64,000 nucleotides of DNA. Origin: an uncultured Beijerinckiaceae bacterium. GTDB taxonomy: Bacteria > Pseudomonadota > Alphaproteobacteria > Rhizobiales > Beijerinckiaceae. Below the pieces are notes generated by a model. It ran no database searches. It saw only the letters and a list, made by a program, of their open reading frames with translations, and had not been told where the DNA came from. A program made the position numbers and the translations under genes. Shown piece after piece: positions 6,430 to 60,785 of this stretch. Position 1 is the stretch's first letter; each line of letters begins with the position of its first letter. The stretch is taken from positions 2,605 through 66,604 of the forward strand of contig CAXSDP010000014.1 in NCBI GenBank assembly GCA_964235705.1, given 5' to 3'.

Positions 6430-6515
6430 GACCCCTTGGCGGAATCGGTAGACGCACAGCACTTAAAATGCTGAGCCCGCAAGGCGTCCGGGTTCGAGTC
6501 CCGGAGGGGTCACCA
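6430..6515 (+). tRNA. tRNA-Leu: tRNA-Leu (anticodon TAA)
   Basis: Acceptor GACCCCT/AGGGGTC + ACCA; D arm GCG...CGC; anticodon stem CAGCA-CTTAAAA-TGCTG; long variable arm; T arm CCGGG-TTCGAGT-CCCGG. Confidence 0.97.
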
Positions 6516-6598: not shown

Positions 6599-6614
6599 TC
6601 GAGGGGTGGCCGAC

Positions 6615-7718
6615 ATGGCTGAGACCTCCTCCATCGAATGGACGGACTCTACCTGGCAGCCGATCACCGGCTGCTCCGTCGTCTCGCCGGGTTGCACCAA
6701 CTGCTACGCGATGGGGCTCGCCGGCACGCGTCTGCGCAACCATCCCTCCCGCGTCGGGCTCACGCGGCCGAGCAAGGCCGGCCCGGTCTGGACCGGCGAG
6801 GTCCGCCTTAACGAAGGATGGCTAACGGAGCCGCTGCGCTGGCGCCGGCCACGCAAGATCTTCGTCTGCGCGCACGGCGACCTCTTCCACGCGGCGGTGC
6901 CGGACGAGTGGATCGACCGCGTGTTCGCCGTCATGGCGCTCTGCCCACAGCATACCTTCCAGGTGCTCACGAAGCGGTCGGCGCGAATGCGGGCGTACAT
7001 GAACGAAGGCACCGTGCGTGATCGCGTGCAAACGCAATGTCACCTAAGCGGGGTCGAGATTACCGGTCGACGGATGTCGGAAGCGAACGCTGAAGAAGCG
7101 GAAGAATTCGTTGCGCTCTCTACGACTGAATGGCCGCTCGCCAATGTTTGGCTCGGCGTCTCCGCCGAAGACCAGCGCCGGGCCGACGAGCGCATCCCCG
7201 ACCTCCTCGCGACGCCGGCGGCGGTCCGGTTCGTGTCGGCGGAACCGTTACTGGGACCGATCGACTTCACGCGGATCGCTTGTCCGAACGGCTGCCGGCC
7301 GCCCGACTACTGCAACCGGTGCCATCCCGACGGTGGAACGCCGACCGGCACGTTTGACTCTCTTGCTGGCGGAGATCTCGACTGGATCATCGTCGGCGGC
7401 GAGAGCGGCCCCAACGCCCGCCCTATGCACCCGCGCTGGCCGCGCGCGATCCGTGACCAGTGCGAGGCCGCCGGTATCGCCTTCCACTTCAAGCAGTGGG
7501 GTGCCTGGAGCTTCGATCCGAAGCAGCGGCTCGACAGCCCAGGCGAACTGGTCTGGTCGGACGGCTGCATCGCTTCGCCTGGCGATGGCGGGGTCAACGC
7601 GCACTGCGGCGCTGCCGGCGGCGGCGGTCACAAAATGCAGCGGGTCGGCAAGAAGGCCGCCGGCCGCCTCCTTGACGGCGTCGAGCACAACGGGATGCCG
7701 GAGGCGCGGCATGGCTGA
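6615..7718 (+). CDS. Phage Gp37/Gp68 (DUF5131) family protein
   Basis: SSIEWTDSTWQPITGCSVVSPGCTNCYA; WIIVGGESGPNARPMHP; FHFKQWG. Confidence 0.92.
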   Translation: MAETSSIEWTDSTWQPITGCSVVSPGCTNCYAMGLAGTRLRNHPSRVGLTRPSKAGPVWTGEVRLNEGWLTEPLRWRRPRKIFVCAHGDLFHAAVPDEWIDRVFAVMALCPQHTFQVLTKRSARMRAYMNEGTVRDRVQTQCHLSGVEITGRRMSEANAEEAEEFVALSTTEWPLANVWLGVSAEDQRRADERIPDLLATPAAVRFVSAEPLLGPIDFTRIACPNGCRPPDYCNRCHPDGGTPTGTFDSLAGGDLDWIIVGGESGPNARPMHPRWPRAIRDQCEAAGIAFHFKQWGAWSFDPKQRLDSPGELVWSDGCIASPGDGGVNAHCGAAGGGGHKMQRVGKKAAGRLLDGVEHNGMPEARHG

Positions 7719-9372: not shown

Positions 9373-9587
9373 GCGAGCGCCAGCCCATCGGCACGGCACC
9401 GAAGGACGGGACGAAGCTGCGGCTGTTCCACGAGCTGAATGCGCAGCAAAGCGAGCCATCCTCAACCACCGGTTTCTTCGACCGCGGGCGCTGGGTGATG
9501 AACCAAGGGTTCTTGATCGAGCTCGACGGTCAGTTGCGGTTCTCGACGGAGCCGACACACTGGCTACCGGAGACCGCCCATGCGTAA
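9369..9587 (+). CDS. DUF551-like small phage protein
   Basis: QPIGTAPKDGT ... PTHW motifs; ATGA overlap. Confidence 0.75.
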   Translation: MSERQPIGTAPKDGTKLRLFHELNAQQSEPSSTTGFFDRGRWVMNQGFLIELDGQLRFSTEPTHWLPETAHA

Positions 9588-10122
9588 ACGGGGCGCCTTG
9601 TCGCTGGCGTGTACCGGCGCCGCCCTACTTGGCGCTGCCGGGTGCGACGATCGCCGCGCCACCAGCGCGATCCCGCCCCTCGCGATCCACTACGCGCCGG
9701 CCGAGAACCTCGAGCCCTACGACGTCGGCCTGATCGACCGCGCCCGGCGCACGATCGACATGGCCGCCTACGTGCTGACCGACCGGCCGGTGCTGGAGGC
9801 CTTGGAGCGTGCGGCCCGGCGCGGCGTCGTCATCCGTATCCTGGTCGACCGCGACCAGCTCGAGGATCGCCCCGAGTCGGCGCCGCTGATCGCCCTGCAG
9901 GACATCCACGGCGTCACCCTGCGGGTGAAGCGCCAGCGGGTCTACATGCACCTGAAATCCTACGCGGTGGACGGCCGCTGGCTCCGCTCCGGCGCCGCCA
10001 ACCTCTCCGCGTCCGGGCTGAAGCAGCAGGATAATGACTTGGTGCTCGTCGACAGCCCGGCGCTCGCCGCCGCGTTCGAGCGGAACTTCGAGGTGATCTT
10101 CGCCGCAGGGGATGTGCAGTGA
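9580..10122 (+). CDS. Phospholipase D-family (Nuc-like) nuclease with predicted lipoprotein signal
   Basis: Single HxKxxxxD (HLKSYAVD) + GAAN + DND; N-terminal MRKR-hydrophobic-LGAAGC lipobox. Confidence 0.85.
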   Translation: MRKRGALSLACTGAALLGAAGCDDRRATSAIPPLAIHYAPAENLEPYDVGLIDRARRTIDMAAYVLTDRPVLEALERAARRGVVIRILVDRDQLEDRPESAPLIALQDIHGVTLRVKRQRVYMHLKSYAVDGRWLRSGAANLSASGLKQQDNDLVLVDSPALAAAFERNFEVIFAAGDVQ

Positions 10123-10388: not shown

Positions 10389-10826
10389 ATGGGTGAAGCG
10401 CGACGTCGGAGCATACCCAGCCTGCAGGGGTGGCTGACGAAGAACATTGCCAGCGACGACGCCACAAGCCGGGACGAGTTCGCCTCCTACATGGACTGGG
10501 TCGCGCGGATGCTCGACCATGCGACGCCGCCGGACAAGCTTCAGGCCATGCACCTGCGCATGATCCAGGCTGCTTCCCTGGCGATCGTCGAAACGAGCAA
10601 TGATGAGGTCAGCCGCGGCTCCGATCCGGCCACGATCATGACCATCATGTGCAAGGCCCTTGGCGCGTCGTTCGGCTACGCGATGATGTCCCTCAAGTGG
10701 GAGGACGGCGCACCGGTCCGACAGCTCGCGAAGCCCCTCGCCTTGGAATTCGAGCGCGGGCTGAAGTATGCGATCGATAGTTGCCTCGAGCAGGACACCA
10801 ACGATGCGGCCAGTCACGATGGGTGA
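10389..10826 (+). CDS. Hypothetical phage protein
   Basis: GGAGG RBS; protein-like composition; overlaps the next gene. Confidence 0.7.
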   Translation: MGEARRRSIPSLQGWLTKNIASDDATSRDEFASYMDWVARMLDHATPPDKLQAMHLRMIQAASLAIVETSNDEVSRGSDPATIMTIMCKALGASFGYAMMSLKWEDGAPVRQLAKPLALEFERGLKYAIDSCLEQDTNDAASHDG

Positions 10827-12660
10827 CGTGGTGCGCACGTTGAGCGCGATCACTCCCCACCCCATCCCCAACGCCGCGCTGGACCAGCCACTCTGCATCG
10901 TCGGCACGGTCGGGTCTGGCAAGACCTACGCGGCCAAGAGCGCGGTGGAGCGCCTGCTCGACGAGGGCCGGCGCGTGATCATCGTCGACCCGACCGGGGT
11001 GTGGCACGGCCTGCGCACCATGGCCGACGGTACGCCGGGCTTCCCCGTCGTGATCTTCGGTGGCGAGCAGGCCGACGTCCCCGTGTCGCCCGACGCCGGC
11101 GCGGTGCTGGGTGAGCTGCTGGCCGGCGACCAGGTCACCCAAGCGATTGTCGACGTGTCCGATATGACAGGGGGCGAGCGCACGCGCTTCCTGACGGCCA
11201 TGCTCGAGCGGCTCTACGTCGGCGCACGGGTACCGCGTCACCTTGTGCTCGACGAGGCCGACGAGATGGCGTCGCAGACCCCCCTGCCCGAGCAGCTCCG
11301 GCTGCTGGGCATCGTCGACAAGATCGTGCGGCGCGGCCGGGTGCGCGGCTTCCGGCCGATGATGATCACCCAGCGCCCGGCGGTGCTGCACAAGAACGTG
11401 CTCAGCCAGATCGCCACGCTCGTCGCGATGCGCCTGACCTCGCCCCAGGACCGCAAGGCGGTGGAGGGCTGGGTGCGCGGCTCGGCCGACCTCGAAGAGG
11501 CGAAGGCGGTGCTGGCCTCGCTGCCGAAGCTCGCGGTCGGCGAGGGCTGGGTCTGGGCTCCGCGCGAGGGCGTGCTCGAGCGCACCCGCTTCCCGGCGAT
11601 CGCGACGCTCGACACGTCCGCGACGCCGGACAACGATGCCGGCCCGAGCCGACCGCGCGCGATGGCACCCGTCGACGTCGCCGCGCTACGCGAGGCGCTC
11701 GCCGTTGTGTCTCCTGAGACGCCGGATCAGCTTACACAAGGCTCTTCGCGTATCATCGGTAAGGCACAAGCCGGTGCAACGACGCCCGATGTTCTCAGCC
11801 GACGCGATCGCCAACAGACCACAGCCGAAGCGGCAACGAAGAGGGAAGAGCTCGAGGCCGCCGAGCGGCGCGGGTACGAGCGCGGGGTGCGCGAGGCGGC
11901 GGAACGGATCAACGGCTTCGAGCTGCTGTTCGAGCCGCCCAGCCGGACCGCCGCCACGATCGAGCAGATGGACCGTCAGCCGATCGGCAACCTGTTCACC
12001 GGCCGGATTCTGGCGCTGCTCGATGAGGCGGAGGTCGAGCGCCGGCCTGACCGGCGGACGGCAGCGGGCGGCATGTCAACCCCCTACGGCCCTGCCCCGA
12101 CGAAACAGCCACAGCGAACCCGTCATGGGCCGGCACAGCGCGAGCATCGCGCCGCCGACGAAGATTTTGGCACCGCGAGAGCCGACCTGACGCCAGCACT
12201 GCAACGCGTCCTCGATGCGCTCGGATGGTGGCGCGCCGCCGGCCACCACGAGGTGCCACGCGCCCGCGCCTGTGTCGTTGCCGGTTACAGTCCAAACGCC
12301 TCCACCTTCGGCGTGTACATCGGCGAGCTCGCCAAGCGCGACCTTGTCGCGACCGGTGCCGGCGTCGTCCAATTGACCGAGGCCGGCCTACAGGTCGCGA
12401 GCGTGCCCGAGATCGCTGGCGTCGAGGATCTCCGCCTCGCCGCCCGCATGCTGCTCAAGCCACAGGAAGCCCGCGTGTTCGACGTCATCTACGACGCGCG
12501 GGGCGCGATTAGACGCGACCAAGTCGCCAAGGCGGTCGGGCTGTCACCGACGGCATCGACGGCCGGCGTCTACATCGGTTCCGTTTCGGCCTTCGGGTTG
12601 ATCGAGCCGGCCGGGCGCGGGGCGGTCCGCGCGGCGCCGTGGCTGTATCTCGCGTCATGA
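10819..12660 (+). CDS. HerA/FtsK-like (DUF87-type) P-loop ATPase with C-terminal winged-helix-like region
   Basis: Walker A GTVGSGKT; VIIVDPTG; Walker B LVLDEADE; ITQRPA. Confidence 0.85.
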   Translation: MGDVVRTLSAITPHPIPNAALDQPLCIVGTVGSGKTYAAKSAVERLLDEGRRVIIVDPTGVWHGLRTMADGTPGFPVVIFGGEQADVPVSPDAGAVLGELLAGDQVTQAIVDVSDMTGGERTRFLTAMLERLYVGARVPRHLVLDEADEMASQTPLPEQLRLLGIVDKIVRRGRVRGFRPMMITQRPAVLHKNVLSQIATLVAMRLTSPQDRKAVEGWVRGSADLEEAKAVLASLPKLAVGEGWVWAPREGVLERTRFPAIATLDTSATPDNDAGPSRPRAMAPVDVAALREALAVVSPETPDQLTQGSSRIIGKAQAGATTPDVLSRRDRQQTTAEAATKREELEAAERRGYERGVREAAERINGFELLFEPPSRTAATIEQMDRQPIGNLFTGRILALLDEAEVERRPDRRTAAGGMSTPYGPAPTKQPQRTRHGPAQREHRAADEDFGTARADLTPALQRVLDALGWWRAAGHHEVPRARACVVAGYSPNASTFGVYIGELAKRDLVATGAGVVQLTEAGLQVASVPEIAGVEDLRLAARMLLKPQEARVFDVIYDARGAIRRDQVAKAVGLSPTASTAGVYIGSVSAFGLIEPAGRGAVRAAPWLYLAS

Positions 12661-12876
12661 CACGGACACGCTCGGTGATCGCCGAGGATCCAGGGATGCA
12701 GCTGCGCGGCGGGCTTTGAAACGCGGGCTGGAAGGAGATGCGCCGCAAGGGTTTATGGTGCTTGAGGGCGACAACGTCCGCCTTGCAGGAGTTTTTGGCT
12801 GCGCTGAGCCTCGAGATCTACTCAACTGAAAGGGACGATTAACCCGACCAACTCACCTTCCTAATAAGTCAAGAGT

Positions 12877-12891
12877 GTTCCTATTTTGTTC
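12877..12891. promoter_or_regulatory. Alphaproteobacterial LexA box (GTTC-N7-GTTC) upstream of dprA
   Basis: GTTC-CTATTTT-GTTC in AT-rich intergenic DNA. Confidence 0.7.
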
Positions 12892-13008
12892 TTTTTGTGC
12901 GATACGCTTTGTTGTGGACAGCGTGCGAGTCGACTGCCGAATGAGTTTGCGACTCGGGCTTCCAAGCGTGAACCGTCGCCCGGCAGCCTTGGTTGAATGG
13001 ATGTGCAC

Positions 13009-13740
13009 ATGAGTTTTCATGGTCGACCAGCTAGAGGACGCAAATACCTCGCTCCGGCACAGTCAGTGTCGATGAAGCTCGAAGATGCTTTGACTGCGGG
13101 CTCGCGCACTTTCCACGACGCTAAACAGATGGATTTTCTTCGAGCGTCGAAGATCATCCACGTCGCCGGTGATACCTCACTCTTTAAGCTCCCGGCCGTA
13201 TCAATCGTTGGTACGCGAGAGGTTTCCGCCGAGGGCCGCGTCCGGGCCGTTCGACTTGCGCGCGAATTAGTCGAGGCTGGGGTCGTCGTAATGAGCGGCT
13301 TGGCCAAAGGTGTCGACTCCGCAGCTCACCAATCTGCTATTCAGTCCGGGGGCCGGACTGTTGCCGTCATAGGCACGCCGCTTGAGAAGGCTTATCCTAC
13401 CGAAAACGCCTCCCTACAGGAGTGGATTTATAACGAACACCTCCTAGTTAGCCCATTCGAGAAAGGAGAAGCCACCTTCAAGTCCAGCTTCCCGAAGCGG
13501 AACCGCGTGATGGCCGCCCTTTCGGATGCCACGGTGATCGTCGAGGCATCTGATACGTCAGGCACACTTCACCAAGCCGCCGAATGTGGGCGTTTAGGTA
13601 GGTGGCTGTTCATTATGCGATCTGTGGTAGATGATGCGTCCCTGACATGGCCGGCTCGCTTCTTGGACAGTCCCAAGACCAAAGTCTTAAACTCAACCAA
13701 AGATATCACCGATGCAATTGCCGGTACAAAACCATATTGA
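13009..13740 (+). CDS. DprA/Smf (SLOG) domain protein, ShosA-like
   Basis: VSIVGTR; VVMSGLAKGVDSAAH; FPKRNRVMAALSDATVIVEASDTSGT; Rossmann core only; start could be 12997. Confidence 0.9.
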   Translation: MSFHGRPARGRKYLAPAQSVSMKLEDALTAGSRTFHDAKQMDFLRASKIIHVAGDTSLFKLPAVSIVGTREVSAEGRVRAVRLARELVEAGVVVMSGLAKGVDSAAHQSAIQSGGRTVAVIGTPLEKAYPTENASLQEWIYNEHLLVSPFEKGEATFKSSFPKRNRVMAALSDATVIVEASDTSGTLHQAAECGRLGRWLFIMRSVVDDASLTWPARFLDSPKTKVLNSTKDITDAIAGTKPY

Positions 13741-14377
13741 AGTCGATAGCTTTGTCCGCTACAGTACGGACTCAACATTAGTAAAAAACAGCAGTGATTG
13801 GGACGCCCAGAAGGTAAGATACATAATGAAGGGAGAGAGCTTTAACGGCTACATCTCCATGTTATGCAACGGTTCTTGGCAGAAGATCACTGAAAACAAC
13901 GCTCATCTCTGTGAGCAGGAACTGGTGCGGCAATGCGCTTTACGTATCATATCGAGGACGACCGGACTGGCGACAATTGTACCGGTGCCAAATAGCGGCG
14001 CCACGCCGGCAAACCAAGACTTTAAAACATTGAAGCACGTGCGGGAGATCGCAGGTCTAGCCGGAAAAGGCTTCCTAGCCAAACCGCTGCTTCTTTGGTC
14101 AAGTCCGCAGGAGAAGTCGCATACAGGTGGTCGGTCAAGGTTGTACCGAGACCATCTACAGCATTTGATCCTCAATGGCTCTACAGACAGGCCAATCATA
14201 CTTTATGACGACGTTGTAACAAGTGGCTCGCAGCTGATAGCATCAAAACTGAAGCTTGAGGCAGCTGGGCATAAGATTTTGGGCATGGTCGCGGTGATTT
14301 CAGTTCTCGAGAAAGATGGAGCTACGCACAGCGATCTCTTCTCCTGGCGAACAGACACGCGCCAATACCTTGGATGA
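13712..14377 (+). CDS. Phosphoribosyltransferase-like protein, ShosT-like partner of DprA
   Basis: IVPVPNS; PRPP-binding loop IILYDDVVTSGSQL; overlaps dprA; AT-rich (about 42% GC at 13741-13800, hand count). Confidence 0.8.
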   Translation: MQLPVQNHIEVDSFVRYSTDSTLVKNSSDWDAQKVRYIMKGESFNGYISMLCNGSWQKITENNAHLCEQELVRQCALRIISRTTGLATIVPVPNSGATPANQDFKTLKHVREIAGLAGKGFLAKPLLLWSSPQEKSHTGGRSRLYRDHLQHLILNGSTDRPIILYDDVVTSGSQLIASKLKLEAAGHKILGMVAVISVLEKDGATHSDLFSWRTDTRQYLG

Positions 14378-14821: not shown

Positions 14822-14836
14822 GTTCCGTTTATGTTC
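14822..14836. promoter_or_regulatory. LexA box upstream of the SOS mutagenesis cassette
   Basis: GTTC-CGTTTAT-GTTC, 21 nt before ATG 14858. Confidence 0.85.
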
Positions 14837-14857
14837 TCCACACCGGAGAGCGAATCC

Positions 14858-15112
14858 ATGGCGACCACGACCTACATCATCCTCCCCTTCATGGTCGCCA
14901 AGCGCGGCGGCAAGCTCGTGCCGGGCACGCCGCAGCGCGCGAAGGACCAAGCGAACGCGGTCTTCGCCGCCGAGCGCATAGCCGAACAGGTCGCTGGCGT
15001 CGTCGTACTGGAGGAGCAGTCCGATCCCGAGCAGGACATCTTCGCCGAGCCCCGCCTCGTGCGCGTCATCGGCCAAGTGCCAGACGAGATGATCGAGTCG
15101 CTCGCGGCCTAA
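14858..15112 (+). CDS. Small hypothetical protein, first gene of the umuDC cassette
   Basis: GGAG RBS; 84 aa MATTTYIILPF... Confidence 0.75.
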   Translation: MATTTYIILPFMVAKRGGKLVPGTPQRAKDQANAVFAAERIAEQVAGVVVLEEQSDPEQDIFAEPRLVRVIGQVPDEMIESLAA

Positions 15113-15151
15113 CCGCCCCATTATCAGCCACGACAGAGAACGGAGAAGCGC

Positions 15152-15586
15152 GTGCAGGTCATCGGCATTACGCTCGGCACACCCATGCCGATCCCCCTGC
15201 TCTTCCGAGCCGTGCGGGCCGGCTTTCCGAGTCCGGCCGACGATTTCATCGAAGACGAAATCGACCTCCAGCGCCTGCTGATCACCAACCGGCCGGCCAC
15301 CTTCCTCGTCCGTGTCGCTGGCGAGAGCATGGCTGACAAGGGGATCCACGACGGCGACCTTGCTATCGTCGATCGCTCGCTGGTGCCGCAGAACGGGGAC
15401 GTCGTCGTGGTCGACATCGACGGGGAGCGCTCGTTCAAGGTGTGGACCCGCAAGGGCAACAGGGTCGACCTCGCCTTCGCTAACCCGCGCTACCCCGCCT
15501 TCGTGTTCGACGCGGGCGCCCACGTCGAGATCTGGGGCGTCGTCGCCAACAGCATCCGCCAGCTCCGCCGGGCCGCACGGCGGTGA
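15152..15586 (+). CDS. umuD: UmuD-like S24 autopeptidase
   Basis: AGFPSPADDF; RVAGESM (catalytic Ser); FKVW (Lys). Confidence 0.93.
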   Translation: MQVIGITLGTPMPIPLLFRAVRAGFPSPADDFIEDEIDLQRLLITNRPATFLVRVAGESMADKGIHDGDLAIVDRSLVPQNGDVVVVDIDGERSFKVWTRKGNRVDLAFANPRYPAFVFDAGAHVEIWGVVANSIRQLRRAARR

Positions 15587-16884
15587 GCGCGCCGGCGCCC
15601 GCCCGCTCCTTGGCGCTCGTCGACGGCAACGCCTTCTATTGCTCCTGCGAGCGGGTGTTCGACCCCCGGCTTAAGGGCGTGCCGGTCATCGTGCTGAGCA
15701 ATAATGATGGCTGTTCCATAGCCCGCACCGCCGAAGCCAAGGCGCTGGGCATCCGCATGGGCGACCCCTGGTTCAAGATCCGCGACCTCTGCCGGCGCGA
15801 GCGCGTGCGGGTGTTCTCGTCGAACTACGCGCTCTACGGTGACATGTCGCGACGGACCAACTCGATCTACGACCGCTTCAGTCGTCGATCCGAGGTCTAC
15901 TCGATCGACGAGTCCTTCCTCGACCTGTCGGACGTGGCGGCCGGCCAGCGCGTCGAGCTCGGCCGCGATCTGCGCTCCACGGTGCTCGCCTGGACCGGCA
16001 TCCCGACCTGCGTCGGCATCGGCCCGACGAAGACGCTGGCCAAGCTCGCCAACCAGCTCGCGAAGAAGAACCCCGAGCTCGCCGGCGTGTGCGACCTGAC
16101 CGAGCCGGCCGCGCGCGACCGATGGCTGGCGCGCACGTCCCTCGACGAGATCTGGGGCGTCGGGCCGGCCTCGCAGGCCAGGCTGCGGGCGATCGGCTGC
16201 GCCACCGTCGCCGACGTGCGCGACCTCGCCCCGCGTCTGGCGCGCCAGGGCATGACGGTCGTGGGCGAGCGCATCGTGCACGAGCTGCGCGGCACGAGTT
16301 GCCTCGACCTCGAGTTGGTCGCGCCGACCCGCAAGGGCTGCGCGGTGACCCGCATGTTCTCCCGCCGCGTGGAAGACCTGCCGACGCTGGAGCAGGCGGT
16401 CGCCGCACACGCGACACGGCTGGGCGAGAAGCTGCGCCGCCACGTGCTCGGCACCGACCACGTTACGGTGTTCTACCACACCAGCGAGCACGACCAGGGC
16501 AGTCCGCAGAGGTCCGTGTCGACGGTGGTGCGCCTGCCGGAGGCGACGTCGGACAGCCTGGTGCTGGTGAAGGCTGCGACCTTCGGCGCCCGGAGGATGT
16601 GGCGCGACGGCTACCGCTACAGCAAGGCGGGGGTGATCACCGTCGACCTGGTGCGGCTCGCCGCGAGCCAGCGCGCGATGCCCAGCCTCGGTCAGTTCGA
16701 CCGCGAGCGCGGGTCCGCGCTGATGGCGGCGATGGACAGCTGCAACGCCCGGTTCGGGCGCGGTGCAGTGGTGCCGGCCGCCGCCGGCGTGGCGCCGCGC
16801 CGGGGCTGGGCGACGAAGTTCGAGATGCGCTCGCCCCGCTACACGACGCGGTTGGCCGAGCTGCCGATGGTGGGGACGTGCTAA
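15583..16884 (+). CDS. umuC: UmuC-like Y-family DNA polymerase (C-terminal DUF4113-like tail)
   Basis: ALVDGNAFYCSCE; VLSNNDGC; SSNYALYGDMS; YSIDESFL; SPRYTTRLAELP. Confidence 0.95.
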   Translation: MSAPAPARSLALVDGNAFYCSCERVFDPRLKGVPVIVLSNNDGCSIARTAEAKALGIRMGDPWFKIRDLCRRERVRVFSSNYALYGDMSRRTNSIYDRFSRRSEVYSIDESFLDLSDVAAGQRVELGRDLRSTVLAWTGIPTCVGIGPTKTLAKLANQLAKKNPELAGVCDLTEPAARDRWLARTSLDEIWGVGPASQARLRAIGCATVADVRDLAPRLARQGMTVVGERIVHELRGTSCLDLELVAPTRKGCAVTRMFSRRVEDLPTLEQAVAAHATRLGEKLRRHVLGTDHVTVFYHTSEHDQGSPQRSVSTVVRLPEATSDSLVLVKAATFGARRMWRDGYRYSKAGVITVDLVRLAASQRAMPSLGQFDRERGSALMAAMDSCNARFGRGAVVPAAAGVAPRRGWATKFEMRSPRYTTRLAELPMVGTC

Positions 16885-17481: not shown

Positions 17482-18270
17482 GTGCTTCACCGCCATAAGC
17501 CCATGACGCGAGCCACGCCTCCTTACAAAACTTTCGCCGAACGTCGTCGCGAATCGGAATGCTACGCGAGCGCCCTCTCGACGATCGACCGCCTGACCGA
17601 CATCACCGAACTCGACGGATTGGCGGACATGCTGAGTTCCGCCTTCTCCACCTATGGCGTGGACCACTTCATCGTCGCTGGCCTGCCGAACCCGACCGAG
17701 CGCTTCGAGAAGATGGTCATGCTCAAGCATTGGTCGGCGGAGTGGTTCGATGTCTACATGAAGGAGGATTACGTGATCGACGATCCCGTCGTCCGCCTAT
17801 GCCGTTCATCGGTGACGCCTTTCGAATGGACCGAGGCGCCCTTCGATGCCGAGCGCGAGCCGCGCGCCCTGGAGCTGATGAACAGGGCGCGCGACTTCGG
17901 CCTTCGACGTGGTTTCAGCATCCCCGTTCACAGCATGAACGGCCTCGACGCTTGTTTCTCCGTCAGCGGGGCCAAACCCGAGTTCGACAGCGGCGCAAGG
18001 GCGGCGCTGCACCTCGTCGCGGTATATGCCTTCGAGAAGGTTCGCCGGCTGTCGCTTCCCAAGCCACGGCCGAGTCCCCTGACCGCGAGGGAGACGGAGG
18101 TGCTGACCTGGATCGCCTCCGGCAAGAGCCACGGGGACATCGCGGAGATCCTGGGCATCACGGAGCGGACCGTGACGGCGCACGCGGTCAGGGCCACCGA
18201 CAAGCTTGGGGCCTCGAACCGAACCCATGCCTGCGTACGCGCCATGCTCGCGAACTATATCTCCGTCTGA
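17482..18270 (+). CDS. luxR: LuxR-family AHL receptor (autoinducer-binding domain + HTH)
   Basis: W..W...Y......DDPV, PFEW and RGFSIP ligand-pocket residues; LTARETEVLTWIASGKS...ERTV HTH; start 17482 or 17503. Confidence 0.95.
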   Translation: MLHRHKPMTRATPPYKTFAERRRESECYASALSTIDRLTDITELDGLADMLSSAFSTYGVDHFIVAGLPNPTERFEKMVMLKHWSAEWFDVYMKEDYVIDDPVVRLCRSSVTPFEWTEAPFDAEREPRALELMNRARDFGLRRGFSIPVHSMNGLDACFSVSGAKPEFDSGARAALHLVAVYAFEKVRRLSLPKPRPSPLTARETEVLTWIASGKSHGDIAEILGITERTVTAHAVRATDKLGASNRTHACVRAMLANYISV

Positions 18271-18340
18271 CCTTCAGGTTTCTACAATACCGGCCTAGGA
18301 CGTTTCTCCGCATGCTGTTGCTTCCGTGGGGGAAGCAGCC

Positions 18341-18979
18341 ATGTCAGAGATCCACGTCGTCACCCAGGCGAACCGGACGGACTACGATCAAATTTTGGTG
18401 GACTACCACCGTAAACGGCATGACATCTTCGTTGGCGAGCGGAGGTGGATGTCCCTTTTCAGCCCTGATGGCCTGGAAGTCGACGAGTATGACGATGAGC
18501 ACAGTATCTACTTGCTCGCGCTTGAGGGTGATACTGTCGTCGGGGGGCAACGACTCTATCCCACCCTGCGACCGCACATGATCAGCCAGACGTTCGCCCA
18601 CCTCGTCGAGGATCGCGTGCCGGTCAGCTCCCGCATCCTGGAATGGACGCGCTACTTCATCATCAAGGAGCGACGGCGGACGCAGACGGATGGGCGTTTG
18701 ATGGCATCCGTCCAGCAATACTGCCTCGAGGAAGGGATCACCGACCTCACCGCGGTAGGCGAGATGTGGTGGCTGCCGCGTTGGCAGCAGTATGGCTTCG
18801 ACGTGCGACCGCTCGGCCTGCCGCAGATGGTCGATGGCCAGCCTGCGCTCGCCGTCCGCATCGAGATCTCGGAGGAGAGCTACGAAAGCGTGCTGAGCGT
18901 CGCCGGGTTGAAGCACCAGGATCTCACTCGGTGCCGTTCGGGCGCGAGCAATGGCGGGCGTCTGGCCAATGCCGCATGA
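18341..18979 (+). CDS. luxI: Acyl-homoserine lactone synthase, BjaI/RpaI-like
   Basis: RHDIFVGERRW, DGLEVDEYDD, GGQRLYPT, LEWTRYF, EMWWLPR, PLGLP. Confidence 0.95.
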   Translation: MSEIHVVTQANRTDYDQILVDYHRKRHDIFVGERRWMSLFSPDGLEVDEYDDEHSIYLLALEGDTVVGGQRLYPTLRPHMISQTFAHLVEDRVPVSSRILEWTRYFIIKERRRTQTDGRLMASVQQYCLEEGITDLTAVGEMWWLPRWQQYGFDVRPLGLPQMVDGQPALAVRIEISEESYESVLSVAGLKHQDLTRCRSGASNGGRLANAA

Positions 18980-19184
18980 GTTACCACGATCGCGGATCGT
19001 GGAAAGTTTGGCGGCGTCCGTCGCCTCGTTCGCCGAGTGCCAATCCGCCGAAGGCTTGGCCAGCCTGATCGGCTTCTTCCACCTGGCCGTTCCTCACCGA
19101 GAGGCCAGGATCGAACTCATTGTCAGTCCTTCGGGGCGCCTGGAGCTCAGCATCGACCTTCATCCGGTGGAAGAGGGCGGTTAG
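18969..19184 (+). CDS. Small (71 aa) hypothetical protein overlapping the luxI stop
   Basis: 11-nt overlap with luxI; protein-like; an alternative 30-aa ORF starts at 18976. Confidence 0.55.
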   Translation: MPHELPRSRIVESLAASVASFAECQSAEGLASLIGFFHLAVPHREARIELIVSPSGRLELSIDLHPVEEGG

Positions 19185-19255
19185 GAGTCGCACGCTGGCG
19201 GTTTGGTCGCGGGACGCATACTGTTGCTGAAGCGAGGCTTCAGTGGGCAAGTGCA

Positions 19256-19663
19256 TTGGATTCTTTCGACGAGCTTGTTGGCACCAAGATCCGTTTCAGA
19301 CGCAACGAGTTGGGGCAGTCTCAAGAACAGCTCGCGAAAGCAAGCGGCGTCACGTTCCAGCAGGTGCAGAAGTACGAGAAAGGCAAAAATCGCGTCGCAG
19401 CCAGCCGCTTGGTGCGTATCGCCGAAGCGCTTCAGGTCCAACCGACCTACTTCTTCCCTCTGGATCCCAAGTTCGGTGCGGCGCCCTGTGGCGAACTTGA
19501 ACTTATGCGAGAAAGCTTCGGAAGCGAGGACAGACGGAAGCTTAACCGCGCCTTTGGCCAGATCGAAGCTCCCGCGTTAAGGAAGGCGATCGTCCGCTTG
19601 GTGGAAGCGCTCGCCGAGGGAAGGACAGGTTACGCCGTGGAGGAAGAAGGCGAGGGCGGCTGA
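19256..19663 (+). CDS. XRE/Cro-CI family HTH regulator
   Basis: VGTKIRFRRNELGQSQEQLAKASGVTFQQVQKYEKGKNRVAASRL; TTG start uncertain. Confidence 0.9.
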   Translation: MDSFDELVGTKIRFRRNELGQSQEQLAKASGVTFQQVQKYEKGKNRVAASRLVRIAEALQVQPTYFFPLDPKFGAAPCGELELMRESFGSEDRRKLNRAFGQIEAPALRKAIVRLVEALAEGRTGYAVEEEGEGG

Positions 19664-19981: not shown

Positions 19982-20809
19982 TCAGGAGCCCGTACCTTGA
20001 ATGACACCCCCTCCATACTTGTTTACAACAAGAAAAAGGCTATTATAGAGCCGCGGCGGAAGATCGGACATCAGATTAATTTTAAAGTCACCTTTTTTAT
20101 TGCGCTCAGTAATGACAGCGATCTTTAGGTCATTGATCTCGTCAATTAAATTCTCCTCTGCCTTTTCGCTATGAGGTACAAAGAACGATACATAGTTCGC
20201 AAATCTTTCGACATCTAAGCGGTCTCTACGTATCGGAGCTGCGAGAGATTGCATGATATTTTTCATTTCCTTCAGCTCGGAAAGCACAAAGTCTTGACTT
20301 GAAACTTCTTGCTCATCGAGCTTGGCAATTTTGAATGTTCCAAACTGTTTGAGAAAGGGCGAGTAATCCGCCTCTTTTGCCGCCTTCATAGTGGCAAGTA
20401 TCTTGGAGCGGAGCGTTTCTTTAAACTTGATAATATCCGCAAAACGCAGATCTTTGGGATAGGCAATGTGTTCTACTAATCCTGTATCAAAGCTATATGG
20501 CGTCACTTCATCCTTGATTATAACTACAGGCTTGTCGAATGCCATTCTCATTCCCAACTCGAACATGACATTGGGATTACGCGAGCTGACGTCGCATACA
20601 ATCATTGGGCAATTACTTATATTCTGCACGATCGTTTTGTGAATAGTCTTAATTTCATCAGCTATGCTAACGACTGTAGCATCCATATTTGCCATCTTGA
20701 TGGCATCCTGTACTATCTCCCTCACGTCAAGCCAATGAGAAGCAGAGTATCCTTCAACAGGACTGATTGGCATTATTATACCGCAGATCTGATTGTCTCT
20801 TTCGGTCAA
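19982..20809 (-). CDS. AT-rich protein with NDT/TIR-like N-terminal domain
   Basis: CGIIMPIS...VCDVSSRNPNVMFELGMRMAFDKPVVIIKD; about 37% GC at 20041-20100 (hand count); TTG start after GGGGG. Confidence 0.75.
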   Translation of the reverse strand: MTERDNQICGIIMPISPVEGYSASHWLDVREIVQDAIKMANMDATVVSIADEIKTIHKTIVQNISNCPMIVCDVSSRNPNVMFELGMRMAFDKPVVIIKDEVTPYSFDTGLVEHIAYPKDLRFADIIKFKETLRSKILATMKAAKEADYSPFLKQFGTFKIAKLDEQEVSSQDFVLSELKEMKNIMQSLAAPIRRDRLDVERFANYVSFFVPHSEKAEENLIDEINDLKIAVITERNKKGDFKINLMSDLPPRLYNSLFLVVNKYGGGVIQGTGS

Positions 20810-20849
20810 GGTGTGACCCCCCGTTTGGTGACCATAAATCTTTGTACTT

Positions 20850-21284
20850 CTATGCTGCTTCAACACCGATGATTAATCGCCTACCGAGAGCGGCCAGCAC
20901 GGCCATCAGCGTCGACATCTTGGTCGGATGATCGGGATCGAGGATGCGCCGCACCTCGCGCCCGTCCTTGCCGAGCCGCTCGCCGAGTTCGGCCTGGGTG
21001 ATGCCGGACTCGCGGAACGCCTCCAGCACCGCCAGCTTCGCCGCGACGTCGGCGTCGACGGAAACCATGACCTGCCCCGCCTTGGCCTTCGACGCTTTCG
21101 GCAGCGGCCGCTTCATCTCGAAGAGGGTGAGCAGCGCCACACCGAGCGCGTCGCTGCCCATCGCCCGCGCGTCAGCCTCGCCGTTGCCCTCGGTGATCGC
21201 CTCCGGCACGTCGGGGAAGGTGACCACGAGGACGCCGGGGTTTTCGCCCGGCTCGAAGATCGCTGGGTACGTGAACATGCGCAT
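20850..21284 (-). CDS. hicB: HicB antitoxin
   Basis: YPAIFEP...VVTFPDVPEAITEG...A; C-terminal HTH (SGITQAELGERLG...RRILDP). Confidence 0.93.
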   Translation of the reverse strand: MRMFTYPAIFEPGENPGVLVVTFPDVPEAITEGNGEADARAMGSDALGVALLTLFEMKRPLPKASKAKAGQVMVSVDADVAAKLAVLEAFRESGITQAELGERLGKDGREVRRILDPDHPTKMSTLMAVLAALGRRLIIGVEAA

Positions 21285-21319
21285 GGATCCCTCCTTGAAC
21301 GAAATGGACCGGCTCGGCC

Positions 21320-21517
21320 TCAGGTGAGGCCGAACTTCTTCCTGATCTTGCCGGCGGTGACCGGGTCGATCTCCCGGCTCGGTAGGATCGTCACCTTGTC
21401 GCCCACGCGGACGATGCAGTGGCCGCCCTTGCCGCGCCCCTTGTCGACCGAGAAGGAAAGGCCCCGGGCCTTGGCGGCGTCGCGAAGCTCGTTGATGAAG
21501 CGATCCCGCTTGTCCAT
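21320..21517 (-). CDS. hicA: HicA toxin (dsRBD-like RNase)
   Basis: 65 aa, basic, GKGGH motif, directly upstream of hicB. Confidence 0.88.
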   Translation of the reverse strand: MDKRDRFINELRDAAKARGLSFSVDKGRGKGGHCIVRVGDKVTILPSREIDPVTAGKIRKKFGLT

Positions 21518-21547
21518 GGCCTTGGTCTCTCCGTCCGATGAAGAGAT

Positions 21548-21602
21548 AATAGGACATAAATGCCCTCATGGCAAGCACTGATTAGGCGTTTTTTGTCCTA
21601 TT
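21548..21602. promoter_or_regulatory. Inverted repeat AATAGGACA...TGTCCTATT, probable HicB operator
   Basis: Perfect 9-bp arms (21548-21556, 21594-21602) between the divergent hicA and 21669 ORFs. Confidence 0.6.
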
Positions 21603-26606: not shown

Positions 26607-29600
26607 TTAGAACGTCAGCTTGAGGAAGCCGCCGCCACCCGAAACCAGGTTGTACGGCGCGCCGGCGAGGTTGATGAGGCCGCCACTCCCCTGCCCCGGC
26701 GTGTTCACCGTGACGTTGCCGGAGCTGTCCTCGCTGAGATGGCCGCCGGTGGCGGAGAGAGGGCCGAAGGCACTGCTGCCCCCGACCGATGACGCTCCGC
26801 CGTTGGTATTGTTTTGAGCGCCGCCGTAGCCGCCGACGACGTAGTAGATCTGCTGCCCCGGCGTGACGTTCAGCGTGCCGTAGGCGTAGCCGCCGAGCGG
26901 TCCATTGGTGGTCGTGCTCTGGTTGTTCCCACCATTGTCATCGTAGAAGAACGTGATGGGTCCGGCGTCCCCGCCGCGCAGCTCGACGTAGAGCCAGGTC
27001 ACGCCGGCTGGCACCGTGAAGATGCCGCTGCCGCTGCCGAAGAACGTGCCGCCGTGCGGGCTGACGAGGTTGCCGTAGCTGCCGGCGTTCAGCGCGTTCT
27101 GGTCGAGCGTCCCAGCGACGAGCACGTTACCGGCGATCTCGACGTTGGCCTCGATCAGCAGGGTGGTGTTGAGCGTCCCGTCCGGGTTCAGCACGCCGGA
27201 CAGGATCAAGCCGCCGGTCTGCCCGTCGATCGTGATGCCGAGGAAGTACTGCGCCTCGATGCCGTTCAGCGAGGCGCCGAGCTGCTGCAGGGTGGCGGTG
27301 TGACCACCGACCGTGGTGGACAGGTTCGAGAGGTTCGTCGACAGCGCCTGGTCGCCGGTGGCGCGCGCGACGCTCTCGTTGGTGATGGCGGCGGTGTTCC
27401 CGTTCACCGTCGAGGTCAGGCTGGTCAGGCTCGCCGACAGCGCGCTGTCGGCGTCGGTGCGGGTCGCGGCTTCCTGGTTGACCGCCGCCGTGTTGGAGCC
27501 GACGGCCGCGTTGGTCTGCGCGATCTGCCCGGCGAGTGACTGGTCGGCCGTGCTTCGGGTCGTGGCCTCGTTGGAGATGGACGAGGTGTTGGCGCCGACC
27601 GTCGTGGTGAGGGTGGCCACCGTCGCCGCGACCGCGTCGGTCGCCGTGGCCGCCACGGCCGCGTTGTTGGCGATCGTCGCGTTGATCGCGGGCACGTTCG
27701 CCTGGGTGCCCGGCGAGTACGGTGACAGGATCGTCTGGCCCGCGGAGGCGGTGCGGGAGAACGGGTGCGTGAAGAAGCCGGCGCAGGCCACGTTGGCGGT
27801 GGGCGCGAAGGTGCGCAGCAGCAGGCAACGCGCGACGGTGTCGGCCGGCGCGGTCGAGAAGCCGCCGATCTGGGTGAAGCCGGCGAGGTTCCCGCCGGCC
27901 GGGTTCCCGCCGCTCGTCTGCGAGCCTTGCGCGTAGGCCAGGACGGTGCCGTTGCCGTCGATGTAGCCGACGTAGATCAGCAGCGCCTGCGCCGCCTGAC
28001 CGGCCGCCAGCACGCTCGCCTCGTAGGTGATGCCCGGTTCGGCCGCCATGTGGGGGCTTGCCCAGTCGGCGTACTGTCCCGCGGCGGTCGTGGCCGGCAG
28101 CAGCGTCGCGAGGACGTTGACCGAGGCGTTCGTGTAGCCGGCCGGGTTGAAGGACTGCTGCGCCCCGGCGAGGATCGATCCGAAGCCCCAGCCGTCGTCG
28201 CCGTTCAGGTCCGAGTTGGCGAGGTCGTTGCCGCCGCCGACCGCGCCCTGCGCGTTGGCCGTGAGCGTCGACACCTCGCTGGCGATCGCGCTCTCGGCCG
28301 TCGTGCGGGCGACGGCCTCGTTGGAGATCGCGGCGTTCAGCGCGCCGGTTTGAGCCGACAACGACGCGATGGAGGCGGCGAGCGCCGCGTCGGCGTCGGT
28401 GCGGGTCGCGGCCTCCTGGTTGATGGCGGCGGTGTTGCCGCCGGTGGCGGAGTTCAACGTGGCGATCTGGCCGGCGAGCGACTCGTCGGCCGTGCTTCGG
28501 GTCGTGGCCTCGTTGGAGATGGACGAGGTGTTGGCGCCGACCGTCGTGGTGAGGGTGGCCACCGTCGCCGCGACCGCGTCGGTCGCCGTGGCCGCCACGG
28601 CCGCGTTGTTGGCGATCGTCGCGTTGATCGCGGGCACGTTCGCCTGGGTGCCCGGCGAGTACGGTGACAGGATCGTCTGGCCCGCGGAGGCGGTGCGGGA
28701 GAACGGGTGCGTGAAGAAGCCGGCGCAGGCCACGTTGGCGGTGGGCGCGAAGGTGCGCAGCAGCAGGCAACGCGCGACGGTGTCGGCCGGCGCGGTCGAG
28801 AAGCCGCCGATCTGGGTGAAGCCGGCGAGGTTCCCGCCGGCCGGGTTCCCGCCGCTCGTCTGCGAGCCTTGCGCGTAGGCCAGGACGGTGCCGTTGCCGT
28901 CGATGTAGCCGACGTAGATCAGCAGCGCCTGCGCCGCCTGACCGGCCGCCAGCACGCTCGCCTCGTAGGTGATGCCCGGTTCGGCCGCCATGTGGGGGCT
29001 TGCCCAGTCGGCGTACTGTCCCGCGGCGGTCGTGGCCGGCAGCAGCGTCGCGAGGACGTTGACCGAGGCGTTCGTGTAGCCGGCCGGGTTGAAGGACTGC
29101 TGCGCCCCGGCGAGGATCGATCCGAAGCCCCAGCCGTCGTCGCCGTTCAGGTCCGAGTTGGCGAGGTCGTTGCCGCCGCCGACCGCGCCCTGCGCGTTGG
29201 CCGTGAGCGTCGACACCTCGCTGGCGATCGCGCTCTCGGCCGTCGTGCGGGCGACGGACTCGTTGGAGATCGCGGCGCTCAGCGCGCCGGTCTGGGCCGA
29301 CAGCGACGCGATGGAGGCGGTGAGCGCCGAGTCGGCGTCGGTGCGGGTCGCGGCCTCCTGGGTGATCGCGGCGGTGTTGCCGCCTGTGGCGGCGTTCAGC
29401 GTGGTGATCTGCCCGGAGAGCGATTCGTCAGCGGTGGCCCGGGTCGCCGCCTCCTGGGTGATCGCCGCGCTGTTCCCCCCGACGGTGCTCGTCAGCGTGT
29501 TGATCGTCGCCGAGAGCGCGCTGTCGCCGTCGGCGCGGGTCACCGCCTCCGCCGAGATCCCGGCGGTGTTGCCGTTCACCGTCGCGGTGAGCGTCATGAC

Positions 29601-46162: not shown

Positions 46163-47677
46163 TCAGGTCAGGCTGATCGTCGGGTACTGCAGGCGGAACT
46201 GGGCGAGGACGTCGAAATTGCGCAGCTGACCCATCAGCTGCGGCGCCCAGAGGATGTTCACCCGGTTCGGGTTGTTGCTGTCGATCTCGACGATCAGGTT
46301 GGCGATAAAGGCCGACACGTTCGAGATCAGCCCATCGTATTCGGCCTGGCGCGCCTCGGCGATCAGCTCCGCCTTGATGATGGAGGGCGTGACGATCGCC
46401 TGCCCGGGGCCGAAGCGGGTCCCGTCCAGCGCCAGCTTGTGGCGCGGGAACTTGGAAGTGATCGCCGCCTTCATGCGGCTGAGCAGCTCGGCGAGGTTCG
46501 ACAGCACGGTGATCAGCGAGAACGCCGTGTCGGCCTGCCCGTACAGGTTGACCTGGTACTGCAGGGCCTCGCGCAGGATCATCGGCTGGCCGTCGGACCC
46601 GAGGCCCTGCACGGCGAGGCCGCTGTTGACGAAGTCGTTCAACTCGGTCTGCGAGAACTGCTGGTCGATCGGCGCAGGCAGGATGCCGACGAGCGGCAGC
46701 GTCTGCAGCGGCCGCGCCGGGTCGTCGAGCAGGGCAGCGGCGCCCTGGGCGCAGTAGGCGGCGACGCACTCCCAGAGCGGCGAGGGTGCCGCCGGCTCGA
46801 AGATCATCGTCGAGATCACCGACGAGTTGTGCTCTAGCCCCCAGGCGAGGCCGTCGGCGTAGTCGGCGCGCAGCGCGTTGTAGACCCAGCCGTACTGCTG
46901 GCGTGTGAAGTACCAGCGGCCGCCGGCGGCGAAGCCGTACTCGGTGTTCCAGGCCTCCAGGCTGCCCGTGTCGTTGTAGGGCATGCCGACGTGGAAGTAC
47001 TGCCGCGCGGCGATCGCGCTGATCGCGGCGGTGAAGTCGGGCTCGCCGGCGCCGCCGGACATGGCGGTGACCGCGGCGGCGAGGCCGACCGGCATGGCCT
47101 CGCCGCCGAGCAGCCCGAGGTAGTTGAAGGAGATCGCGACGTCGTCGCCGGTCGCGCCCTTCCAGCGGCACGTCAGGTCAACCTTCGCCGGGTTGGTGCC
47201 GTCGACGGCCGCCGTGACCGGCAGGGTCGGGGTGGCGTTGATGGTGGCGACGAGGTTGGCGGCGACCGTCGCCGGCGTGTCGGTGGAGTAGACCGCGACC
47301 GCGATGAGCTGGCCGGCGATGTAGGTCGACAGCACGCCGGACTGCAGGCTGGTGCCGGAAAGCAGGATGGATCCGGCGGCGACCTGGCCGGCGGCGGGAT
47401 CGGGGACGGCGACGCACCAGAGCTGCTGGGTGTCGTTGCCCTTGAAGAAGCGGGCGACCATGCGCTCGAGCATGGAGCCGACGCCGAACAGCTGGCCGGC
47501 GACCGCGAGCGAGCCGACAGCGATCGGCACGTTCGGCATGACGACGCCGATGGCGAGGTACTGGCCGACGAGCAGCGCAGGCTGACTCTCGGTGAGGTTG
47601 CCGGCCATCGTCCCGTCGACGGTGGCCTGGAAGAGCGGCAGCTTCCAATTCGCGGGGATCTGGGTGGCGACGGCCAT
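46163..47677 (-). CDS. Contractile tail sheath protein (Mu L-like)
   Basis: LFGVGSML; DDPARPLQTL; DSNNPNRVN. Confidence 0.93.
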   Translation of the reverse strand: MAVATQIPANWKLPLFQATVDGTMAGNLTESQPALLVGQYLAIGVVMPNVPIAVGSLAVAGQLFGVGSMLERMVARFFKGNDTQQLWCVAVPDPAAGQVAAGSILLSGTSLQSGVLSTYIAGQLIAVAVYSTDTPATVAANLVATINATPTLPVTAAVDGTNPAKVDLTCRWKGATGDDVAISFNYLGLLGGEAMPVGLAAAVTAMSGGAGEPDFTAAISAIAARQYFHVGMPYNDTGSLEAWNTEYGFAAGGRWYFTRQQYGWVYNALRADYADGLAWGLEHNSSVISTMIFEPAAPSPLWECVAAYCAQGAAALLDDPARPLQTLPLVGILPAPIDQQFSQTELNDFVNSGLAVQGLGSDGQPMILREALQYQVNLYGQADTAFSLITVLSNLAELLSRMKAAITSKFPRHKLALDGTRFGPGQAIVTPSIIKAELIAEARQAEYDGLISNVSAFIANLIVEIDSNNPNRVNILWAPQLMGQLRNFDVLAQFRLQYPTISLT

Positions 47678-52211: not shown

Positions 52212-52219
52212 TCGGGGTC

Positions 52220-60738: not shown

Positions 60739-60785
60739 CGCGCAACCCATTGTTATTGTTTGTTTTTCTTACTTAGACGCTGTTC

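Follow-up and report, generated by a model that had tools for sequence, protein, structure and literature searches.

The cassette and its products

The window analysed here is a stretch of 64,000 nucleotides on contig CAXSDP010000014.1 (assembly GCA_964235705.1) of an uncultured Beijerinckiaceae bacterium, a lichen-associated alphaproteobacterium with an assembly of 4.4 Mb, 69% GC and 186 contigs. At positions 12997-14377 of its plus strand lies a two-gene cassette that probably belongs to the ShosTA (DprA-phosphoribosyltransferase) family of toxin-antitoxin and defence systems. The first open reading frame (ORF A, shosA-like; 12997-13740, plus strand) encodes a DprA-like protein of 247 residues, a Rossmann core without a SAM domain that would be the antitoxin. 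The second (ORF T, shosT-like; 13712-14377, plus strand) encodes a stand-alone phosphoribosyltransferase (PRTase) of 221 residues, of the ComF/ShosT type, which is the putative toxin. As read from the sequence, the two frames overlap by 29 nucleotides (13712-13740, plus strand), which makes translational coupling probable; in relatives of the pair, the genes overlap by 1-53 nucleotides or abut. In a preliminary description of the locus the first gene was started at 13009, which is the second in-frame ATG of ORF A.

That description rested on an overlapping DprA core and PRTase with a GC content well under that of the flanks, and this was borne out (0.55 and 0.50 against 0.70-0.71). The GC content is 0.551 in ORF A, 0.495 in ORF T and 0.565 in the intergenic leader, compared with 0.702 in the upstream ATPase gene, 0.712 in umuC and 0.691 in the whole genome. 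At third codon positions, the pair has 0.55-0.58 and the adjoining genes 0.85-0.94. The cassette is compositionally foreign. Its sequence was found in one run only, that of the source lichen metagenome. An independent metagenome contig (L043) repeats both the ATPase-DprA-PRTase order and the GC dip, and the low-GC block is therefore no assembly artefact. Scans for promoters, terminators and repeats around the cassette gave nothing informative.

ORF A matches the Pfam family DNA_processg_A over residues 52-225 (E-value 3e-50). Only about 50 residues precede this core, and they are modelled as one strand and two short helices. The PADLOC ShosA model PDLC03961 matches with 1e-68 and 230 bits, but only through profile positions 94-294 of 303; positions 1-93 are unmatched and the SAM domain is absent. 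In a Foldseek search with the AlphaFold2 model (confidence score pLDDT 92.5), DprA structures were matched at an E-value of 1e-16, with a template modelling (TM) score of 0.73 for DprA of S. pneumoniae. The Rossmann domain of the SAM-less DprA of H. pylori gave a TM score of 0.74 by query length and 0.83 by target length, and E. coli ShosA (8ZVA) one of 0.66 (E-value 3.9e-14). The DprA signature motifs GTR, SGLAKGVD and FPKRNR show no variation in 53 relatives. What the first gene encodes is the DprA Rossmann core alone, as would be looked for in a DprA-like Rossmann antitoxin. It is distinct from the DprA that serves the host in transformation, because its score against TIGR00732 (dprA) is 150.8 bits, under the curated equivalog cut-off of 191.15, and the host has a separate housekeeping DprA on contig C1 (225.7 bits against the Pfam model).

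The DprA fold lies within the SLOG superfamily, and ORF A also has a weak match to the LDcluster4 profile and Foldseek matches to LOG phosphoribohydrolases (E-values 1e-5 to 1e-6). The pair could be a nucleotide-modifying writer and eraser or an auxiliary metabolic module, in which the PRTase would phosphoribosylate a base or nucleotide and the SLOG/DprA-fold protein would act on the product in the manner of LOG, and not through single-stranded DNA (ssDNA) or RecA. It accords with this that no purine binding was detected for the E. coli toxin ShosT (PMC11961720). Nevertheless, such a role is highly improbable for a protein that retains the DprA-specific motifs GTR, GLAKGVD and FPKRNR and that matches DprA structures far better than LOG enzymes, for which the TM score is about 0.47.

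The active site of ORF T appears to be that of a phosphoribosyl pyrophosphate (PRPP)-binding enzyme. The PRPP loop is classical (PIILYDDVVTSGSQL), and the loop YDDVVTSGSQL contains D166, D167, T170 and G172, which do not vary among 70 homologues; the same applies to K40, P93 and R143, the last of which is carried by the flexible loop. A long pyrophosphate (PPi) loop, residues 92-104, lies between a strand (87-91) and a helix (105-117). The AlphaFold2 model (pLDDT 94.4) consists of a single type-I PRTase domain with no second domain, in agreement with the earlier observation that the 221 residues leave no place for an extra hydrolase domain. At an E-value of 0.1 or below, no Pfam family was matched, and no ComF model was among the NCBIfam matches. 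Paired CxxC motifs do not occur in the 221 residues, and a 4-Cys zinc finger is missing. ORF T is a PRTase of the ComF/ShosT type as judged from these features, and both its catalysis and its toxicity are putative.

Few relatives of ORF T are reached by a word search; they are proteins of 223-229 residues with 34-40% identity, from Rhizobium, Sinorhizobium, Agrobacterium and metagenomes. An exhaustive profile search gave 347 clusters at an E-value below 1e-10, nearly all of 210-230 residues, and the homologues of ORF T are 214-240 residues long. A tblastn search of 50,697 phage records with ORF T gave no match.

Conservation and mobility of the pair

In all eight close-relative loci, the PRTase start is preceded by a DprA-like gene that has 55-60% identity to ORF A and terminates no more than about 20 nucleotides from that start. 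The same order is present in L043, L044 and L046, three contigs to which the DprA protein had led. Where a metagenome locus encoded a DprA of at least 50% identity and extended far enough downstream, a PRTase lay directly 3' of the DprA gene in 18 of 19 cases. The genes around the pair vary between loci, the cassette has a lower GC content than its flanks in each of the five loci checked, and the pair is rare: the PRTase was present in three and the short DprA in one of 300 other species-representative genomes of the same order. Given the changing neighbours, the low GC and this rarity, the pair behaves as a horizontally moving two-gene cassette.

The two genes have diverged to different extents. 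The closest relative, a syntenic prophage on L043 (4001-5444, compared with 12997-14377 of the window), has a DprA with 86% and a PRTase with 51% amino acid identity, and at the DNA level the similarity (76%) does not extend beyond the DprA gene. Such a pattern suggests fast evolution of the toxin or its replacement. In the other relatives, the DprA-like proteins are 55-60% and the PRTases 27-43% identical. The stronger conservation of the DprA-like protein fits an antitoxin that is constrained by host partners (RecA, ssDNA) and not by the toxin.

Relationship to known DprA-PRTase systems

The closest counterparts in organisation are the short-type ShosTA pairs described by the PADLOC models PDLC03961 and PDLC03962, in which the DprA gene comes first and is followed by an overlapping or abutting gene for a PRTase-only protein of 201-227 residues. 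Three such pairs were found by searching phage records with ORF A: gp51-gp52 of Burkholderia phage Mana (a DprA of 282 and a PRTase of 225 residues, with a 53-nucleotide overlap), gp53-gp54 of Burkholderia phage PhiBP82.2 (294 and 227 residues, adjoining attP) and a pair in Pseudomonas phage Riah (311 and 201 residues). Pairs of this type occupy accessory slots of temperate phages near the integrase or attP, and the window pair likewise lies in the accessory arm of a prophage. The phage DprA proteins, of 282-311 residues, possess a SAM-type region at the N terminus (profile positions 1-93), which is missing from ORF A. The phage PRTases match all 237 positions of PDLC03962 end to end with 141-151 bits, whereas ORF T reaches 36 bits. 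The preliminary description had taken the compact form to be an alphaproteobacterial variant. It is not a novelty of the alphaproteobacteria, as PDLC03962 already models PRTase-only proteins of 201-227 residues behind DprA in phages. The PRTase-only, antitoxin-first type has a model in PADLOC-DB v2 (2023), and the minimal form is known.

The same gene order is present in Gordonia phage Vasanti (308 and 249 residues) and phage phiOH2 (410 and 401 residues). In SopEPhi, a PRTase of 193 residues lies upstream of a DprA of 325 residues. The possibility that orf13 and orf14 of SopEPhi form a split two-domain ShosT was rejected, as the translation is full of stops and orf14 is not matched to the ShosT crystal sequence.

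The only relative with a worked-out mechanism is ShosTA of E. coli APEC O1 ("DprA + PRTase" in Rousset 2022; structures 8ZVA-8ZVD and 9VZO), with a two-domain toxin of 424 residues; this pair was used in both structural papers and in Rousset 2022. It shares with the window pair a DprA fold, a PRPP-binding PRTase with the DD motif and a prophage location. However, its ShosT begins with a PPase/HAD-like domain (residues 1-164) that is absent from ORF T, and its ShosA begins with a SAM domain (residues 1-94) that is absent from ORF A. ORF T has no detectable sequence match to E. coli ShosT and is linked to it only by a Foldseek E-value of 1.4e-4. The gene order differs as well: the window pair is antitoxin-first, while the annotated canonical pair of phage PfAC02a is toxin-first. 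The hotspot table of Rousset 2022 lists both a HAD/PRTase type and a "LDcluster4/DNA_processg_A | PRTase_3" type.

The order of the genes is also relevant to another explanation, that of addiction. The chemistry would be the same, but the pair would stabilise the prophage or segment by killing or arresting the cells that lose it and would give no protection against other phages. According to papers that cite Kimelman 2012, the original account of ShosTA presented it as a toxin-antitoxin pair and nothing more, and an antitoxin-first, overlapping order is the classical layout of an addiction module. Still, a purely addictive role is improbable. With a type IV antitoxin working through RecA and repair rather than by binding the toxin, it is not obvious how cells would be killed after segregation unless the antitoxin were far less stable than its toxin, and related pairs occupy known anti-phage hotspots of P2-like phages.

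PsyrTA (RqlHI) likewise combines a DprA-like antitoxin with a PRTase-containing toxin, and the PADLOC PsyrA model matches ORF A at 3e-28. The PsyrT model matches 15 of the 70 members of the ORF T family, but not ORF T itself, and of its 689 positions only the last 90-140 or so, the PRTase end, match the short PRTases. The PsyrTA/RqlHI toxin is described in the literature as carrying a helicase, which the window pair does not have.

Probable SOS control

The intergenic leader of 336 nucleotides (12661-12996) contains a candidate LexA (SOS) box, GTTCCTATTTTGTTC (12877-12891, plus strand), which is an exact match to GTTC-N7-GTTC and lies 106-120 nucleotides upstream of the DprA-like start. The window holds four exact matches to this motif, against 2.1 expected. 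Two boxes with an A/T-rich spacer are present in the window, one in the leader of the pair and one at 14822-14836, in front of umuDC. Exact boxes with such a spacer number 12 in the 4.4-Mb genome, which corresponds to 0.0009 expected in a leader of this length. In L043, both half-sites are kept (GTTCCTGTTATGTTC) although the spacer and flanks have diverged, and L044 has a version with one mismatch. Validation of the motif across the genome was only partly successful: exact A/T-spacer boxes precede umuDC and the genes for a RecD2-like helicase and a class II ribonucleotide reductase, yet unrelated genes have them as well, and the host recA and lexA have imperfect boxes only.

The search was extended to other antitoxin-first cassettes using the motif of each host type, namely GTTC-N7-GTTC for alphaproteobacteria, CTGT-N8-ACAG for betaproteobacterial phages and GAAC-N4-GTTC for the actinobacterial phage. 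LexA-type boxes were found before the pairs of Burkholderia phages Mana (CTGTATGCATAAACAG) and PhiBP82.2 (CTGTATATTTGTACAG), of Ralstonia phage YO009_3 (CTGTACAAATATACAG) and of Gordonia phage Vasanti (GAACAAATGTTC, 41 nucleotides before the DprA start); the boxes at these Burkholderia, Ralstonia and Gordonia phage loci are at L033 2129-2144, L035 2245-2260, L057 233-248 and L059 1103-1114. Among 80 metagenome loci, four (L088, L105, L106 and L109) have a CTGT-N8-ACAG or GAAC-N4-GTTC box just upstream. For CTGT-N8-ACAG, there are three matches in 22.8 kb of upstream windows and one in 186.5 kb elsewhere (Fisher p = 0.005). For alpha-type boxes, no enrichment was seen in the upstream regions of the 80 metagenome relatives (none, against 11 in the background), which indicates that SOS wiring is a trait of sub-lineages and not of the whole clade. 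LexA boxes are absent before the cassettes of the Rhizobium/Agrobacterium clade and those of Riah and phiOH2.

SOS control of the operon through binding of LexA to its leader is likely on this evidence, and the box suggests that the operon is SOS-induced rather than constitutively expressed. In the literature searched, which included both mechanistic papers, there is no mention of LexA or SOS control of ShosA-type cassettes. A bolder proposal is that cassettes with DprA first and PRTase second are a separate, SOS-wired class among the ShosTA-like systems that has not been described before, with the host RecA-LexA circuit as the sensor. Such cassettes would be silent in the lysogen and would fire only on ssDNA-RecA filaments, either to abort the replication of an intruder or to serve prophage induction. 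This proposal is tentative, and we regard it as possible but doubtful.

A umuD-umuC cassette (14822-16884) lies directly downstream of the pair, behind its own exact LexA box. The order DprA-PRTase-umuDC recurs in the metagenome contigs L046 (6299-8354) and L047, where the umuDC DNA is 71% identical, and the two SOS-linked cassettes may travel together. The exact box of the umuDC type, GTTCCGTTTATGTTC, was also observed on two contigs of 2.7 kb, C180 (position 942) and C181 (position 122); on C181 it stands 53 nucleotides upstream of a RecD2-like helicase gene. The two contigs could be pieces of a related element or carry further SOS genes.

Probable assignment to the ShosTA family

In profile searches with single models, the PADLOC ShosA and ShosT models both matched, and the matched genes are adjacent, co-oriented and overlapping. 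These matches were dropped as proof of membership, as the ShosT model matches all control genomes and the host ComF, and the ShosA model also matches housekeeping DprA. Since the model scores do not discriminate, membership has to be argued from synteny with DprA on mobile elements, and the DprA-then-PRTase synteny was found to be conserved there. The resemblance to ShosTA that had been proposed for the locus therefore holds in part. The architecture, the PADLOC matches (ShosA 1e-68, ShosT 1.2e-9) and the pairing in all close relatives speak for it, but the ShosT score is only at the level of generic PRTases.

Several observations weigh against the assignment. The ShosT model PDLC03962 finds matches in all 14 control genomes. 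It gives ORF T 36 bits (all 70 family members match) and the host ComF 34-37 bits, so that the score of the putative toxin does not rise above that of housekeeping PRTases as those of the phage members do. The ShosA model gives the housekeeping DprA of the host 180 bits, compared with 230 for ORF A. A profile built from the PRTase family of the window scores the host ComF at 44.8 bits, within the range of the DprA-linked phage PRTases (40-68 bits overall; 40-64 for Mana, Riah and PhiBP82.2, and 68 for SopEPhi orf14). In the Foldseek search with ORF T, H. pylori ComFC ranked first (6.6e-8), an adenine phosphoribosyltransferase second and E. coli ShosT (8zvc) third. Sequence searches of the PDB with ORF T and with the family profile (phmmer, hmmsearch) returned only generic PRPP loops; the ShosT crystal sequence was unmatched and ComFC unconvincing. 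The putative antitoxin is without the SAM domain, and loss of this domain compromised E. coli ShosA; published experiments on any short-type pair were not found in the literature searched. Repression of the operon by LexA would be at odds with the simple view of a toxin loaded in advance and held by an unstable antitoxin. Finally, the two genes are not always paired. A more distant PRTase of 239 residues occurs without a DprA partner, between TetR-like and LysE-like genes, on L041 (1450-2169) and L042, which are two genomes of one genus. On L063 (1474-2633), a DprA-like protein of 253 residues, 59% identical to ORF A, is followed by an unrelated ORF of 126 residues and no PRTase.

The main alternative is suggested by ComFC, a PRTase-fold protein that works with DprA on ssDNA. 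The H. pylori protein (PDB 7P0H) is the best PDB structural match to ORF T and shares its PRPP loop, its long PPi loop and, at the N terminus, two additional strands. Iyer et al. 2017 had already pointed out that PRTases of mobile elements are akin to ComFC and linked to DprA. According to this alternative, the cassette would be a non-toxic ssDNA-handling module derived from ComFC and DprA, in which the PRTase-fold protein guards ssDNA and passes it to a RecA-loading DprA-like protein. The module would be SOS-induced together with umuDC, for recombinational repair or for tuning RecA* and induction. In several species, ComFC is an ssDNA-binding protein and an interaction partner of DprA (PMC9005727). 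The family-profile score of the host ComF, equal to those of some phage ShosT-like proteins, points in the same direction, as do the LexA box, the adjoining umuDC and the repetition of this order in L046 and L047. The much stronger conservation of the DprA-like protein would equally suit a protein with conserved host partners. However, ORF T has neither the 4-Cys zinc finger that defines ComFC nor its competence context, and the ComF models of NCBIfam fail to match it. The host already owns a DprA and a ComF, the latter with a zinc finger. A rare, low-GC, horizontally moving insert in variable slots has the habit of a conflict gene rather than a repair gene, and the DprA-PRTase pairs that have been studied experimentally are toxin-antitoxin systems. 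We consider the repair module unlikely. A candidate PurF on host contig C50 was discarded, as translation showed a zinc-finger ComF to which a spurious N-terminal extension had been joined.

Taken together, the cassette is predicted, by analogy and with reasonable though limited confidence, to be a divergent member of the ShosTA-type (DprA-PRTase) toxin-antitoxin and defence family that is doubly stripped-down and antitoxin-first.

Proposed mechanism and significance

The E. coli system provides the basis for a model. E. coli ShosT binds PRPP, and its toxicity is exerted through disturbed purine metabolism and DNA damage (PMC11961720, PMC12961424). A mutant in the DD motif of the PRTase abolishes toxicity, while a PPase mutant has a marginal effect (PMC11961720). 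E. coli ShosA does not bind ShosT. Rescue depends on three of its properties, namely dimerisation, binding of ssDNA and binding of RecA, and excess ssDNA breaks the contact between ShosA and RecA (PMC11961720, PMC12961424). The system of E. coli APEC O1 acts by abortive infection. As the PPase domain is of minor importance in E. coli and the DD mutation abolishes toxicity, a PRTase-only toxin is plausible. An antitoxin without a SAM domain would be less expected, because E. coli ShosA was destabilised when this domain was deleted. H. pylori DprA shows, on the other hand, that the Rossmann domain can stand alone.

By analogy, the cassette would be a mobile two-gene operon for a DprA-like antitoxin and a PRTase toxin, inserted as a low-GC moron in a prophage beside tRNA-Leu. 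In the resting lysogen, the operon may be held low by host LexA, and RecA-ssDNA filaments that arise through DNA damage, prophage induction or a replicating intruder would switch it on, if the box in the leader is functional. The PRTase would bind PRPP and divert or deplete it, and the resulting disturbance of purine metabolism would cause replication stress and DNA damage, as in E. coli. The DprA-like protein would not bind the toxin; it would bind ssDNA and RecA and offset the damage by recombination, which would make it a type IV antitoxin. An invading phage that floods the cell with ssDNA or stops host expression would tip the balance, and the infected cell would arrest or die. The lysogen population and the prophage would thereby be shielded.

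The family is already known and such cassettes are common, and specialist value attaches only to the probable SOS wiring and to the minimal set of domains. In this clade both proteins are reduced to their cores, the PRTase having no PPase domain and the DprA no SAM domain. If the pair is active, a PRTase domain and a DprA Rossmann domain are sufficient, and the pair would be the smallest system in which to find the acceptor substrate of ShosT. The recurring, host-specific LexA boxes before antitoxin-first cassettes point to transcriptional SOS control, which would tie the known dependence of ShosTA on RecA and ssDNA to its regulation.

The prophage and its accessory arm

The pair sits about 6.5 kb inside a myovirus-type prophage. 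To the left of 6.4 kb lie host genes for a glycosyltransferase, a bacteriophytochrome with an HWE kinase, a major facilitator superfamily transporter and a MarR regulator; they end at a tRNA-Leu gene (6430-6515), and phage-type genes begin at 6606. The structural module (26607-56099) looks complete as judged from its genes, all on the minus strand: a fibre protein of 1471 residues (26607-31022), the tape measure (41128-43443), the tail sheath (46163-47677), a protease-capsid fusion (49638-52223), the portal (52220-53806) and the large terminase (54054-56099). These genes at 26-56 kb and the end of the host genes at tRNA-Leu uphold the earlier view that the pair is prophage-borne, and moron is a fair description of it. 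Genes for a DNA methyltransferase (56801-57619) and a serine recombinase (59890-60750) follow. Comparison of the tRNA-Leu region with the rest of the window gave no convincing att repeats, and the right end of the prophage is probably outside the window.

The accessory arm contains genes for a DUF5131 protein, a phospholipase D (PLD) nuclease and a HerA-like ATPase, then the pair, umuDC and luxR-luxI. The DUF5131 protein (6606-7718) matches the PADLOC candidates PDC-M41B and PDC-M30B at about 1e-70, the lipoprotein-like PLD nuclease (9580-10122) matches DrmC-like models, and the HerA/TrwB-like ATPase of 630 residues (10768-12660) has a weak match to the HerA and mad8 models. No complete defence system was recognised among these three genes.

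Two overlapping ORFs of 294 and 242 residues at 19982-21578 (minus strand) are without the high third-position GC content of their neighbours. The first has a weak match to nucleoside 2-deoxyribosyltransferases (1e-4) and the second a weak HicB-like match (6e-4). A further small conflict module is one possibility; the other is that both frames are spurious and lie opposite 20928-21581. The accessory arm also includes a luxR-luxI pair with an XRE-type regulator behind it (17482-19663).

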